Below are positions 17,321 through 23,700 of a DNA stretch of 64,000 nt, piece after piece. Location of the stretch: contig MU058221.1 in the NCBI GenBank assembly GCA_013265495.1, positions 4,882,066-4,946,065 of the forward strand, written 5' to 3'. A model generated the notes under the pieces. The model saw only the letters and a program-made list of their open reading frames with translations. It did no database searches and was not told the DNA's origin. The position numbers were made by a program, and so were the translations under genes. Each line of letters begins with the position of its first letter. Positions within the stretch are counted from its first letter, which is position 1. Source of the stretch: Vicugna vicugna (taxonomy: Eukaryota).

Positions 17321-19349
17321 AGGACTTCGTGGCTCTCCACTGAGGCTTGTGTATCCAGCCAGGAGATGGGGGATGAAAGAGAGCAGAGGTCAGTGCCAGT
17401 GGCTCCACTGAACTCCAAGAGTTCCTGAGAAATAGAGTCCCCTTGCCGGTCCCGGAGAAAGAGAAGGTGGCCTTGTTGCTGCCACAGTGAAAAAGGGCAG
17501 CCCAGGTCTTGACAGCACTGATCTCTGCCTGAATCACTAGGTTTCAAGTGCGCGGAGGAAATCAGCCAAGGCTTGCATGGACTCGTGGCGCAGAGGAGGC
17601 AAAACCTTCATGGAGCTCATTATCAAGTGTCCAACTTGTCCCACACCACGTGAGTCACCTGAGACTCAAGTTCCTAGGTTGGGTTCCTAGGTTGGGCACC
17701 CCTAGTCCAACTCTTACAGCTCAGCCCTAAGGGAGAATGCTGCAAACAGCACCAGATCGTCACACATGGTGGCCTTTGTTCTGAATGTCCCCAGTTCTTT
17801 CTTGGTGTCTGTTTTCATTTTTGTTGCCCGATGACTCAGAGCCTATGACCCTGCTTGCTTGCATAGGGCAAGGGGTGTCTTTTGGTCAGAACCTTAGCCA
17901 TAGTGAATGGGTTCATATCATGTGGTTCAGGCCTGATTTGGGGTAAAATCATTGGGTGAATCAGCAGGTCTTATATGCCTGCCTGTGCCAGAGGATTCAA
18001 GAGAACACGGCTCCAGGACATCTTCAGTGACCTTATCTGGCTGCAGAGGCCGGGGCAACCCAAATACAGACATTCCTCATTTTATTGCCCTTTGCAGATA
18101 CTATGTGGTTTTTTTTTTTTTAATGAATTGAACGTTTGTGGCCACCCTGCCTCCAGCAAATCTATTGGTGCCATTTTTTTCCAACAGCGTTTGCTCACTT
18201 CGGGTGTCTGTGTCACACTTTGGTAATTCTGGCAACGTTTCAAGCCTTTTCATTATTATTATGCCTGTTATGGTGATCTGTGATCAGTGATCTTTGATGT
18301 TATACTGTAATTATTTTGGGGCATCAGGAACCATGCTCATAGAAGACAGTAAGCTCAACAGACAGATACATGTATTCAGATTGCTCCATCAGTCAGTTGT
18401 TCCCCCATCTCTCTTCCTCTCCTTGGGCCTCCCTATTCCCTGAGACACAACAATATTGAAATTAGGCCAGTTAATAGCCCTACAGTGACCTCTGCACATT
18501 CAGGTGGGGAAAAAAAAATCACACATCTCTCACTTTAAATCAAAAAGTAGAAACGATGAAGTTTAGTGAGGAAGCCATGTCGAAAGCTAAGAGAGGCTGA
18601 AAACTAGACCCCTTGGACCGAACAGTTTGCCAGGTTGTGAATGCGAAGGAAAAACTCTTGAAGGAAGTTAGAAGTGTTACTGCAGTGAGCATGTGAATGA
18701 TAAGAAAGTAAAACCAGCCTTATTGCTGATACGGAGAAAGTTTGCGTGGTCTGGGTAGAAGATCAGACCAGCTACAACATTCTCTTGAGTCTGAGCTGGA
18801 TCCAGAGTAAGACCCCAGCTCTCTTTAATTCTATGCAAGTGGGGAGGTGAGGAAGCTGCCGAGTTTGAAGCTAGCAGAGAAGCCGTCCCCGTGACAGAAA
18901 AGTGCAAGGTGAAGCAGCAAGGGCTGGTGTACACGCTGCAGCAGGTTGACCAGAAGACCTAGCTGAGATCATCGATGGAAGTGGTTACGCCAAACGACAG
19001 ATTTTCAGTAGACAGAACAGCCTTATGTTGGAGGAAGATGCCATCTTGGCCTTCCGTGGCTGGAGAGAAGTCAATGCCTGGCTTCAACGCTTCGAAAGAC
19101 AGGCTGACTCTCTTGCTAGGGGCGAATGCAGCTGCTGGCTTTAAGTTGAAGCCAGTGTTCATTTACCGTTCTGAAAATCCTAGGGCCCTTCAGAATTATC
19201 CTCAACCTACTCTGCCTGTGCCCTGTAAGTGGAACAACAGAGCCTGCAGGACGGCACATCTGTTTGCAGCGTGGTTTACTGAATATCTGAAGCCCACTGT
19301 TGAAACCTACTGCTTAGGAAAGAAAGATTCCTTTCAAAAATTCCTCCTC

Positions 19350-19824
19350 TTTACTGTGTCAACTTTTTCTATAATACAGCTAAGCTTTAAGTATCAGTAA
19401 GATACCAATTTGGAAAAATACCGCATTATTTAATGCTCGTGTTTTTTAAGGATAAGCTAAGAGGTCCAACTTATTTTTATTTCAACGATCAACATATGTT
19501 CCTATATTAAGCAAAAGATTAACTTCATTTTTTTCCAGTAGAGCTTTAGTTTTTGTAAATCTTTAGTATTTTCTCCATCAAAATTCGAAGTGATTAAGAG
19601 AGAAGGGCTTACCTTCTTTTGGAGGTTTTTCTAATTTGCACCATGGCACCAGATAAGTAATGTCACTCTCTGGTCGATCAATAAGAGCCAAATTTGCAAT
19701 GAGAAATTGTTCCTGCCATTCCTTATCTTTGGCCAAAGCTTTCTGAACTTCAGTTCGATGAGCAAAATTGTCTATGGAAAGAAAAAGGAGTAAAAAAATA
19801 AAAATGTTAAATTAAAAAAAAAAA
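19350..19824 (+). mobile_element. L1-machinery-mediated insertion of non-repeat DNA (orphan transduction or retroposed antisense RNA)
   Basis: TSD aaaaat(t)cctcctc at 19336-19349 and 19820-19832; AATAAA at 19797-19802; A-run 19814-19824; splits the contiguous Tigger1 sequence 'ttcctttcaaaa...ctcattgacaatg'. Confidence 0.9.
19613..19771 (-). pseudogene. NIPSNAP3A: Single 159-nt internal coding exon copy of NIPSNAP3A/3B with intact acceptor and donor
   Basis: Minus strand: ctcctttttctttccatAG|ac aat ttt gct...cca aaa gaa g|GTaagc; translation (D)NFAHRTEVQKALAKDKEWQEQFLIANLALIDRPESDITYLVPWCKLEKPPKE(G) vs recalled human NIPSNAP3A DNFAHRTEVRKALAKDKEWQEQFLIPNLALIDKQESEITYLVPWCKLEKPPKEG. Confidence 0.93.
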
Positions 19825-20049
19825 TCCTCCTCATTGACAATGTACCTGGTCACTCAGGAGCTCTGATGAAGAGGTACAGTCAGACTGTTGCTGTTTTCAT
19901 GGCTGCTAACACAGCATCCAGTCCGCAGTCATTCTTAAGTCTTTGTCCTTTAAGAAATACATGTCATTAAGGCTGTAGCTGCCATAGATAGTGATTCCCC
20001 TGGTGGACCTGGGCAAAGTCAGCCCCTTCTGGAGGGGAGTCACCATTCT

Positions 20050-20150
20050 TTTATTTATTTATTTTTTTTAATGGAGGTACTGGGGATTGAACCCAGGACC
20101 TCGTGCATGCTAGGCATGTGCTCTACCCCTGAGCTATGTCCCTCACCCCC
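20050..20150 (-). mobile_element. Vic-1-type SINE nested in Tigger1
   Basis: 'atggaggtactggggattgaacccaggacctcgtgcatgctaggcatgtgctctacc.ctgagcta'; degraded TSD ggagtcaccattct / ggattcactatttt. Confidence 0.9.
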
Positions 20151-20554
20151 GGATTCACTATTTTAAATGCCATTAAGAACATTCATGATTCATGGGAAAA
20201 GGTCAAAATACCAACATGAACAGCAGTTGAGAAGTGGACTCCAACCCTCATGGATGACTTTGAGGGGGTCAAGACTTCAGGGGAGAAAGTAGCTGCAGAT
20301 GAGGTGCAAAGAGCAAGAGAACTAGCCTTACAAGTGGAGCCTGAAGCTGGGGCTGAACTGCTGCATCTCACAGTAAGACTTGAATGAAGAGCTGGTTCTC
20401 ATGGTTGAGCAAAGAAAGTTGTTCCTTGAGATACAACCTACTCCTGGTGAAGATGCTGTGAAGATTGTTCAAATGACAACAGAGGACTTGGACTATTTCA
20501 TAAACGTAGTTGATAAAGCCATGGCAGGGTTTGAGAGGACTGACCCCAGGTTTT

Positions 20555-20714
20555 AAAATTTTTTTATTTATTTTTAATTTTTTTTGGAGGGGGCGAGGTA
20601 ATTAGGTTTATTTATTTTATTTTATTTATTTTTAAATGGAAGCACCAGGGATTGAACCCACGACCTCGTGCATGCTAAGCATGCAGTCTACCACTTGAGC
20701 TATACCCTCCCCCT
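20555..20714 (-). mobile_element. Vic-1-type SINE, long form, nested in Tigger1
   Basis: tRNA-like head plus extra 'gaggtaattaggttta' segment; TSD ggactgaccccaggtttt / ggattgaccccagtttt. Confidence 0.9.
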
Positions 20715-23700
20715 GGATTGACCCCAGTTTTGAAAGAAGTTGTCCTGTGGGTAATGTCAAACAGCACTGCATGCTACAGAGAAATCATTCATGAAAGAGT
20801 CACTCGATGTGGCAAACTGCACTGTTGACTTATTTTAAGAAATTGCCACTGCCACCCCAGCCTTTAGCAGCCACCGCCCTGATCAGTCAGTCGCCATCAA
20901 CGTTAAGCCAAGGCCCTCCACCAGCAAAAAGATAACGACTTGCTGAAGGCTCAAAGACAGAGTTCTTCAGCAATAAAGCATTTTTGAATTAAGGTATATA
21001 CTTTGGTTTTGGGGGGACACATGCTGTTGCACACTTAGCAGACTACAGTATAGTAGAAACATAACTTTTATATGCACTGGGAAACCAAAAAATTCGTGTG
21101 ACTTACTTTATTACAGTATTCGCTTTATTGCAGTGTTCTAGAACCAAACCCACAGTATCTCGGAGGTGTGCCTGGGAAACGAGTGAGGGCCCAGACAGGG
21201 CTGCGTGTGTCCAGTGTTCGAGCCAGGGAGCCCAGCTCAGGGCAGAGAATGGCCCTGACAACTCGGTCCTGCTCAGCCCACTTCTGGAGCTTTCGGCTTA
21301 GTTCTGGGAGCTGCGGTCTCAGTGGGCCTTAGACAAAGCAGTGATTTCGAAGGGTCTGTAGGGGGCCCTGGCCTGGGGAAGATGGAAGGTGATGGGCTGG
21401 TTGGCCATCATGATCTTTGTAACGTTGGGCTGTGGTCATGGGAACAGAGCGGACGTAACGGGCAGTTCCTGGGGAGAGCGAGGCAGAGTGAGGGGCATCT
21501 TTCGTTGACTCAGGGCGTGGAAGGGGAATTTGTGAACCATCGTGGTAGCCTGAAGGCAGCACAGCACACTACTGCTTTGCACTACACCAGGACTGCTCAC
21601 ATGGAGCAGGGCAAATCCCATATTCAGGCGATGACTTTGGGAGAGCAGCTGTACTGGAAGAAAACAAAGTGTCTGTGGAAGGAAGAAACCTGAAAGAACC
21701 TTTTTTGGTGGAGCCGGTCTTCGGCCAGGCTGTGACAGCCAGGCAGGATCTGGATGGACCGAAGGAGAGGGTTTCGCAATGTAGACATGCATCAAACCAT
21801 CAGCTTGTACCACTTGCACCGTATGTCAGTTGTATCTCAGCAAAGCTGGAGGAAAATGAGGAGGGAAGGCCTTCCAGCCAGCAGACGTGCACCGAGGGTG
21901 GGGTCCGCAGGAGAGGGCGCGAGGCACGGGCTGGGCAGGCCTTGACAGCAGGGAAGAGGTGCTGGACCAGGCCTGGCGGGGACTGCGTTCTGGAAAGTGG
22001 AGTCTGTCTGAGGATTGTGGGATCTTCCACAGTGAAGGTGACGCGGAGGCGGCTTGAGAAGTTTGGTGACGAGTGTCCAGATGGGGTTTTGGGGGAGAGT
22101 GAAAGGGACAGTGGGCGAATTTAAGAGCCAGCTTGTGCGGATGAGGTCTGTAGTCCTTGGTAGTTCTAGCATTTTCACGATGGCGATTATGAAGAGGCCT
22201 CCCTGCGCCTCCAGCCCTGAGAGCGTGAAGGTGGGAGGCCATGGTGCTTCCCTGCGGAGCTGGGTGCGGGATAATCTCATCAGCCCGCCCCCTTCGTGGC
22301 CCATCCTTGCCACGTGGAAGGTCAAGGCTGCAGGACTTGAACGCTCTCCCAGTGGATGCCGCTGTGCTTGGCCTGAGAGGGTGGCCCCCCGATGCTCCCT
22401 GCCCACGCTGGGGTGGGGGGGAGCCAGGCGGGCTCTCAGTGCCTACTTCCCTCTGAGCGCCCAGTCCTGACCTTTGCTGTTCGATTCAGCCACGAGCCCT
22501 GTTATGGCCAGGTGGCGGGGCAAGAGGGTCAGGGACTCTCCCGTGGGTCCTGCCTTCTGATCCCCACAGCACCTCTGCAGGGCAGGAACTCTGAGCATCT
22601 CAGAGAGGCCCATCCCAAGGTGTCACAGTGAAGTGGACTGACAGGTCTGCCTGGGTCTCAGTTCTCTGACTTCACATCTGGAGTTTGTTCCAGCGTTGAG
22701 CATCTTTCAGGGCCCTGGATGAAGAATTTCACATTCCTTAAGAATGCGGCTGCCTGGGCGGGACTGAGACTCCTGGGAAATCATCTGTAGGCGCGTGTGC
22801 ACTCGGATGAGAAGGGAATTCGTAATAGCCAGCCTGCACCGAGGGCCGGGCCTGCCTGTTGACTCGTGAATTCGCATCTCGGCATTTTGGAGACGAGGCC
22901 ACTGAGGCACAGAAAGCCTCAGTGGGTTGCCCAGCCCCGAGCAGGAGCTGGACCTTAGAGCCCCCGCCCTTAAGCTCAGGGCAGCCGGGCCTCCCAGACG
23001 CTCGCTTGGCTCCGAGCGGCCTCTGAAGCTCTGGAGAGGGTTGGCCTGTCTGTGCCTGCGGGCTTTCTCCGGAGGCTGCCTTGAGTCAGGAATGACTGGG
23101 TCTCAGCCTGAGATGCCACCTGCTCTGAGGTGGTGGCTGCTCGCTGCCCCCGGTGGGTTTCTGTGACTGACTGGTGGAGAGGAGGATGATCAGAACTGGG
23201 AGGGCCCTCAATGTGCCGTGGCCCACGCTGGCTGCGGCCCTGACTCTGGGTCTCTCTGCGTGCTCTGCTGCCTCACTTGAACTTGAAGGGCATGTCCTCT
23301 GAACAGCCTCCCGAGGCGATAAGGGTTTACCTGCTGGTCAGGAGAGAATACAGGGTCCCATGCAGAGTGGCCTGTTAAAGCGACGGTGGCTCCTCCTTGC
23401 CCTCAGGGGGCGCCGTTGAGACTTGAAGCCTCCTCTCTGAACATTCTTCCCACATGGATGGAAACAGTGAGCAGCGGCAGCCACAGATCTCATGGACCAC
23501 GTTCCCCGGATTAACTTTCTCATCACTGTTGTTTTTATATGCTTATTCCTCAAGTTAGCTGTATGACACAAATTTATAGTTTGGTAAATATGATTACATG
23601 ACCATATGGCTTTTATCATGCCTTCTGACTTGGCCTAGGTGAAATTTTTGTTTCTACAAAGTATTAAGAGTTAAAAGCCCTTGATTGTTTTTGATTCTCT

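Follow-up and report, generated by a model that had tools for sequence, protein, structure and literature searches.

A 464-nt insert in a Tigger1-type transposon of Vicugna vicugna: most likely an inert retrocopy of an unspliced RNA antisense to NIPSNAP3A

A 464-nt insert carrying one exon of a NIPSNAP3A-type gene, together with parts of both neighbouring introns, was found within a Tigger1-type DNA transposon in a 64,000-nt stretch of Vicugna vicugna DNA (assembly GCA_013265495.1, contig MU058221.1, positions 4,882,066 to 4,946,065 of the forward strand). This stretch is referred to below as the window, and positions without a contig name are those of the window. The insert is very probably a one-off retrocopy, 5′-truncated or short, that was made by LINE-1 (L1)-type machinery from an unspliced RNA running antisense across the NIPSNAP3A-type gene. 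It represents a single event, as the genome holds only the insert itself, its parent and one paralog of the parent, and it is most likely a real but inert genomic fossil of a known, rare kind.

Structure of the insert

The insert was read on both strands across 18800-20400. All of the elements named in a preliminary description of the window, which had been made from the letters alone, were located in this reading, including the target-site duplications (TSDs), the AATAAA hexamer, the A run, the pyrimidine tract with its AG, the 159-nt exon and the GTAAGC donor. The left TSD, aaaaattcctcctc, was read directly from the plus strand at 19336..19349, and is followed by the body of the retrocopy at 19350..19813, the limits of which were set by alignment to the parent locus. 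The plus strand of the body has the sense of the proposed template RNA, and is antisense to NIPSNAP3A. The preliminary description had given the insertion a size of ~475 bp; the insertion itself stands, whereas its length is corrected to 464 nt plus the tail.

The gene-derived features of the body all lie on the minus strand. In the order of the gene, they comprise the final 42 nt of NIPSNAP3A intron 2 (19772..19813, from the parent alignment and the sequence), the whole of exon 3 (19613..19771, from tblastn and Pfam), and the first ~262 nt of intron 3 (19350..19612, from the parent alignment and a tblastn exon map). Some 260 nt of downstream intron had been noted before and were found again; the 42 nt of upstream intron, which are also retained, are an addition to the earlier picture. 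The exon is 159 nt long, a multiple of three, and is free of stops over 53 codons, with its open frame giving phase 1. It is preceded by an AG acceptor at 19773-19772 (minus strand, by sequence reading), with the pyrimidine tract ahead of it, and is followed by the donor GTAAGC at 19612-19607, the counterpart of which in the parent is GTAAGT.

The features expected of a retrotransposed RNA lie on the plus strand. The AATAAA at 19797..19802, the putative poly(A) signal of the antisense template, is located 11 nt before the end of the homology to the parent. The complete A run consists of 11 A (19814-19824), and is followed by tcctcctc up to 19832. If the last five A are assigned to the right TSD, aaaaatcctcctc (aaaaa-tcctcctc, 19820..19832), an untemplated tail of 6 A is left at 19814..19819. 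The right TSD matches the left one at 13 of 14 positions, with a single T missing. No A run was seen at the opposite (left) end of the insert.

The parent locus

A search of 19350-19813 against the animal's own genome returned three matches only, namely the insert, the parent and the paralog. The parent match, at 901142-901603 of contig C6644, lies on the opposite strand, is colinear over query positions 2-464, and shows ~96-97% identity (E=2.5e-213). The colinear exon-plus-intron match that had been predicted for the NIPSNAP3A locus was thereby recovered with both flanks. The paralog match (C6644:917452-917768) covers query positions 146-459 at 83% identity. An origin from NIPSNAP3A or NIPSNAP3B had been proposed; the family was upheld, and the identities of 96% and 83% to the two copies narrow the source to the NIPSNAP3A-type one.

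The parent is the first of two tandem NIPSNAP3 genes, and was identified by tblastn as a multi-exon, NIPSNAP3A-type gene on the plus strand of C6644, with exons at ~896.42, 899.23-899.43, 901.18-901.34, 902.83-903.04 and 906.11-906.36 kb. The second NIPSNAP3 gene spans 913.40-922.67 kb of the same contig. The copied exon corresponds to 901183-901344 of the parent, where it is flanked by introns of ~1.7 and ~1.5 kb. Within the 247-aa protein, it encodes residues ~91-144, which make up the C-terminal half of the first NIPSNAP domain; in the parent, residues 91-144 are 100% identical to protein P0002.

The 52-aa peptide of the insert matched the Pfam NIPSNAP family (PF07978) over model positions 57-102 of 102, with E=2.6e-6 and 28 bits against a curated cut-off of 22.3, a match that represents half a domain, and not a protein. 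A protein search with the same peptide retrieved 116 proteins, the named ones being nearly all NipSnap homolog 3A or 3B. Four NIPSNAP3 proteins taken from this search (P0002, P0004, P0005 and P0045) were used in tblastn, and aligned to 19772-19611 with 81-93% identity. With these four proteins no further NIPSNAP3 exon was detected in the 64-kb window, the remaining matches having E values of at least 0.13. The neighbouring exons that would mark the real gene or a larger duplication were thus absent, and since exon 3 alone is present in the window, the insert is neither a real NIPSNAP3 gene nor a segmental or multi-exon duplicate. It also departs from a strict processed pseudogene, in that both intron flanks are kept, and the exon lies on the strand opposite to the tail.

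Two observations were made on the proteins retrieved. P0004, named as a Camelus dromedarius NipSnap-like protein 3A of 230 aa, is 17 residues short at the exon 2/exon 3 junction compared with its 247-aa relatives (…LVGYW/NNFAH…), and this gap at the copied exon looks like an annotation artefact. The Logan and ENA proteins P0003, P0011, P0012 and P0020 were considered as copies of the insert in other species, and were rejected; they are read-through open reading frames (ORFs) of the parental-type locus from other animals, and have different intron-derived ends.

Template strand, poly(A) signal and tail

Alignment to the parent revealed that the homology begins at tTTACT and terminates at ...GTTAAATT. 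At the homology end the parent reads ...AATAAAAATGTTAAATT, then T-AAAA-TCACCTGTACGTTTTCTGAGTTTCATT, where the window has eleven A; just past this end, the parental sequence is t-aaaa-tcacc, with no A run. The AATAAA, by contrast, is already present in the parent, on the antisense (C6644 minus) strand, 11 nt before the homology end. A cryptic signal on that strand had been suggested by the preliminary description, and it was found to pre-exist there. Downstream of the hexamer the parent continues as aaattt/aaaatcacctgtacgttttctgagtttcatt, which is U/GU-rich, as is characteristic of genuine poly(A) sites. The paralog lacks the AATAAA, and reads aaattacaa. Because the parent has the AATAAA yet no A run, the A tail is untemplated, and it is antisense to the exon. 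The introns retained on either side of the exon, in turn, indicate that the template RNA was unspliced. The proposal of an unspliced antisense RNA template is supported by these retained introns, by the parental AATAAA and by the untemplated antisense tail, the support from the tail being moderate since only 6 A extend beyond the TSD.

These features are consistent with the following series of events. The template would have been an RNA that was transcribed through the NIPSNAP3A-type gene in the antisense direction and remained unspliced. Its 3′ end would have been formed 11 nt past an AATAAA that is spelled, by chance, in the complement of the intron 2 pyrimidine tract, and a poly(A) tail would have been added. 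Either the last 464 nt of this RNA were copied, or the RNA itself was short; in both cases the copy would comprise exon 3 flanked by 42 nt of intron 2 and by ~262 nt of intron 3. LINE-1-type machinery would then have nicked the target at TTTC/AAAAA with its endonuclease, and carried out target-primed reverse transcription. The copy would have landed in the Tigger1-type transposon, creating a 14-nt TSD, and would have drifted neutrally ever since.

The same body could in principle have been derived from a sense RNA. In this alternative, the NIPSNAP3A pre-mRNA was the template, its copy was inverted by twin priming, and the 3′ segment bearing the tail was lost. An unspliced parental pre-mRNA certainly exists, whereas the antisense RNA is hypothetical, and 5′ inversions are described as a known outcome of L1 activity in PMC10760644. 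A twin-primed insert, however, retains a non-inverted 3′ segment with its tail, whereas here the A run directly abuts the piece that would be inverted. The homology also ends 11 nt past an AATAAA that is spelled on the antisense strand only, and the opposite end of the insert has no A run. Twin priming of a sense pre-mRNA is considered extremely unlikely.

Insertion site and host transposon

The host is a Tigger1-type element, as had been proposed, and spans ~18061-21174 with its transposase sense on the plus strand. Its left part (18061..19335) was delimited by blastn against 11 other copies, to which it is 71-76% identical. The right part (19833..21174) is itself interrupted at ~20050-20150 and ~20558-20714, and is covered by the other copies at 19818-20049, 20151-20557 and 20715-21174. 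When the three insertions are subtracted, ~2.38 kb of repeat is left. The ORF at 18963-19349 matches positions 1-73 of the 177 of Pfam DDE_1 (E=4.7e-15), and represents the remnant of a pogo-type DDE transposase. The nearest named relatives of the left-flank transposase are annotated as "tigger transposable element-derived protein 1", at 64-69% identity, and these TIGD1 matches bear DDE_1, HTH_Tnp_Tc5 and CENP-B_N domains. A first look at the genome yielded no fewer than 1005 candidate copies of the host repeat, and the 39 scored matches other than the window are 80-85% identical to the left flank. The element presumably belongs to the Tigger1 subfamily, the length of which is 2.4 kb.

The other host copies show what the site looked like before the insertion. 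All 11 copies that were retrieved run from one flank into the other without a break. Eight of them show an overlap of 5-8 nt between the flank alignments; the other three are locally diverged, and are still without the insert. Across the site, the other copies read ...TTTCAAAATATTACTGCTC/ATTGACAATG..., and the target homologue AAAATATTACTGCTC occurs once in each of the 11. Since the target is single in every one of them, the 14/13-nt repeat that flanks the insert is a true TSD. The pre-insertion site is tttc/aaaaattcc, and an empty site in outgroups would be expected to read ...TTTCAAAAATTCCTCCTCATTGACAATG... The nick site TTTC/AAAAA resembles TT/AAAA on the sense strand, the preference of the L1 endonuclease.

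The alternative to retroposition is an event at the level of DNA, or an artefact, such as a small segmental duplication, a filler introduced during the repair of a double-strand break, or an assembly chimera. The parental TAAAA and the target AAAAA offer a weak microhomology for an event of this kind. End joining, on the other hand, is opposed by the 14/13-nt TSD and by an untemplated A run placed 11 nt past an AATAAA, which together form the signature of target-primed reverse transcription. The insert and the parent differ, in a global alignment, by 15 substitutions and 3-4 indels over 461 aligned positions (p = 0.033, Kimura two-parameter distance 0.033). A mis-join would be equal to its source, and the parent is the sole possible source; as the insert differs from it, the pasting of the parent locus by mis-assembly is ruled out, which speaks against the chimera that had been raised as a concern. 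Word counts point, indirectly, the same way, in that 14 DNA runs carrying five organism labels contain 0.62-0.76 of the sampled words, against at most 0.59 for an empty site plus the parent. These shares lean towards presence of the insert in all five organism labels. A DNA-level or artefactual origin is considered highly improbable.

Some observations weigh against the account of an antisense, polyadenylated template. The tail is only 6-11 A long, and the parent has TAAAA beyond the homology end. Reverse transcription might thus have been primed at an A-rich site within a longer antisense RNA, which would give nearly the same product, and would alter the polyadenylation detail alone. The word shares of 0.62-0.76 lie barely above the empty-site maximum of 0.59. 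Finally, scans of a metagenome collection for the exact junction, first with a 30-mer, and then with a 21-nt core, found no occurrence in either case.

Possible origins of the proposed antisense RNA at the parent locus

An orphan L1 3′ transduction has also to be weighed for the present insert. According to this explanation, transcription of an L1 lying antisense inside or downstream of NIPSNAP3A passed the poly(A) site of the L1 and continued to the cryptic AATAAA, and the copy suffered so extreme a 5′ truncation that it consists of flanking sequence alone. The product would look like the insert: it would contain nothing of the L1 itself, would have a TSD and an A tail, and would stop at a poly(A) signal located downstream. 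Orphan 3′ transductions are an established class (PMC10760644). The parent locus, however, offered no source. Intron 3 continues for a further 1224 nt immediately upstream of the template 5′ end, and this sequence is single copy except for its counterpart in the paralog. Pfam scans of 97 of the 137 listed ORFs of at least 45 aa in C6644:900001-914096 detected no domain of a reverse transcriptase, an endonuclease or L1 ORF1, nor was any L1-type protein domain detected in 145 ORFs of at least 55 aa in C6644:914100-940000. The only T or A runs of at least 10 within 900-914 kb are located at 912.15-912.24 kb, ~10.5 kb from the template. As no source L1 was found upstream in the parent among the sequences and ORFs scanned, an orphan 3′ transduction is very unlikely.

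Under the preferred reading, in which an antisense RNA was copied in trans, the surroundings of the parent provide possible sources for such an RNA on the appropriate strand. ABCA1 and the NIPSNAP3 pair are convergent; the final coding exon of ABCA1 (930208-930690, minus strand), in which an R1_ABCA1 domain was recognised (E=4.4e-31), is separated from the template by ~29 kb. A CpG island is present at the start of each NIPSNAP3 gene (C6644:896001-897000 and 913001-913750), and the CpG-island promoter of the second gene, at 913.0-913.75 kb, is ~11.4 kb from the template. Divergent transcription from this promoter would have to pass 16 AATAAA hexamers before reaching the template. Read-through from ABCA1 and divergent transcription off the neighbouring NIPSNAP3 promoter are both possible sources of the antisense RNA, and a cryptic start within NIPSNAP3A is equally possible. 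The order of the first NIPSNAP3 copy, the second copy and the convergent ABCA1 is presumably that of human 9q31. No report of an antisense RNA at NIPSNAP3A was found in the literature looked through; the top-ranked paper containing both terms mentions NIPSNAP3A and antisense separately.

A start of the antisense template in an ABCA1-like ORF that lies between the two NIPSNAP3 genes was also weighed, and was rejected, as this ORF belongs to an old DNA-level duplicate of an ABCA1 exon and intron that shows no sign of transcription. This part-duplicate, which comprises one exon with intron, lies at L006:7522-9674 (C6644:907522-909674) on the ABCA1 strand, and shares 77% identity with C6644:942295-943365 and 69-78% with 947259-948462. 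It contains a 111-aa ORF (L006:7796-8128, minus strand) that matches ABCA1 residues ~1652-1704 (E=1.6e-18, PDB ABCA1 chains) and Pfam ABC2_membrane_3. It constitutes a second stray exon at the parent locus, moved by a different, DNA-level route.

Divergence, age and possible use of the copy

The substitutions that separate the insert from its parent are spread over the whole body, with 10 at 305 non-exon positions and five at 159 exon positions. All five exon substitutions are nonsynonymous, and change P to A, K to R (through two adjacent changes), Q to P, and E to D. Polarisation by the paralog placed three of the changes on the insert lineage, and left two ambiguous. The exon has diverged at least as fast as the intron parts, and so gives no indication of constraint, as expected without selection. 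Neutral rates in mammals are 1-2.2e-9 per site per year, and a divergence of 3.3% would, as a rough estimate, date the insertion to ~8-17 million years ago. It is proposed that the exon is still open, and that its AG and GT are kept, because the copy is young relative to its length.

The preliminary description regarded the exon as splice-competent and as a ready exon-shuffling cassette. By eye, the acceptor, the pyrimidine tract (extended by a T run), a possible branch site TTTAAC and the donor GTAAGC are intact, which makes splice competence plausible; a role as an exon-shuffling cassette seems unlikely. Evidence for a host gene was sought in the ORFs of the window, by scans that would miss short exons and non-coding genes. 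Of the 151 ORFs in the window that reach 92 aa, the 150 longest were scanned, and gave no host coding exon that Pfam could detect besides the transposase and the NIPSNAP exon. Between 6000 and 34000, 190 ORFs of 55-91 aa were listed; the 150 of them that were scanned, which lie at 6037-27806, added no further coding exon. The RNA runs listed contain 0.09-0.16 of the sampled words, and a range of 0.05-0.23 was also recorded for RNA; both levels can be explained by the RNA of the parent, 171 of 821 31-mers occurring in the parent as well, and they count as no evidence of expression.

A copy of the same origin that is not inert would have its exon spliced into a minus-strand transcript, or would act from the plus strand as an antisense regulator of NIPSNAP3A. 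The intact AG, pyrimidine tract, possible branch site and GTAAGC would allow the former, as would a stop-free exon whose length is a multiple of three, and PMCHL1 provides a precedent for such copies becoming spliced RNAs (PMC2621205). The five exon substitutions, however, all change an amino acid, and the exon diverges at the pace of the intron; among the ORFs scanned, no Pfam-detectable coding exon beyond the transposase and the NIPSNAP exon could serve as a partner, and the RNA-run word shares are no more than the parent's own RNA can supply. An active role for the copy is accordingly judged most improbable. The same holds for the combined claim that the insert is a polyadenylated antisense fossil and, at the same time, an intact symmetric exon that is now spliced into a minus-strand transcript, placing half a NIPSNAP domain in a new RNA, which would have only a very slim chance of being correct; if true, it would be exon shuffling by antisense retroposition, caught in the act.

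Two features of the window as a whole were also recorded. The G+C content over 1-64000 is ~50%, with many long open frames. No clear CpG island is apparent, as the observed/expected CpG of 1-kb bins reaches 0.58 at most.

Comparison with known retrocopies

The mechanism proposed for the insert is already known, and PMCHL1 is its closest precedent. According to PMC2621205, PMCHL1 arose by retroposition of an antisense PMCH transcript. The insert resembles the primate PMCHL1 and PMCHL2 in that the template is antisense to a protein-coding gene, the exon/intron order is reversed with respect to the 3′ end of the retrocopy, and the copy lies far from the parent (PMC2621205). In the insert, the order is reversed relative to the poly(A) end, and the antisense strand of the parent carries a poly(A) signal. 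The two systems differ in their later history. As described in the same paper, PMCHL1 is located in a CDH12 intron, where splice sites were newly acquired, and has become a non-coding gene with spliced transcripts in testis and brain, whereas no host gene was found for the insert. The antisense transcript of PMCH is known (PMC2621205), whereas none was found for NIPSNAP3A in the literature looked through.

The insert resembles ordinary L1-mediated processed pseudogenes (PMC10760644, PMC5470649) in being 5′-truncated, in going back to a single parent, and in having a TSD and an A tail at an L1-like target site. Processed pseudogenes, however, are spliced and sense to their tail, whereas the insert keeps both intron flanks and is antisense. 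Like orphan L1 3′ transductions (PMC10760644), it consists of unique non-L1 sequence that ends at a downstream poly(A) signal and has a TSD and an A tail; such transductions need a source L1 just upstream in the same orientation, whereas none was found at the parent. Retrocopies of microRNA host genes are similar in a different respect, in that L1 acted in trans on a polyadenylated, non-mRNA transcript of RNA polymerase II, and the copy records transcription of the parent (PMC7692494). Their templates are annotated, spliced and sense, whereas the template proposed for the insert is unannotated, unspliced and antisense. The copying of non-mRNA RNA polymerase II transcripts by L1 is documented in PMC7692494.

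The insert is a clean example of L1-type machinery copying something besides a mature mRNA. It would record the past existence of an unspliced antisense RNA at NIPSNAP3A that ended at a cryptic poly(A) site. Pipelines that seek intronless, sense retrocopies miss copies of this kind, and the review PMC5470649 gives the caveat that intron-containing retrocopies are easily overlooked. Such copies are also one route by which an exon with working splice signals can be moved elsewhere. As a single and apparently unused copy, the insert is mainly an annotation curiosity, and a possible phylogenetic marker for the lineage that carries it.

Other insertions in the host element

The two further insertions in the same Tigger1-type copy, at 20050-20150 and 20558-20714, are 83% and 78% identical, respectively, to one ~110-130-nt stretch of locus L015. 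Since both resemble the same stretch, they are probably two copies of one short interspersed element family, and the first of them looks tRNA-derived by eye.

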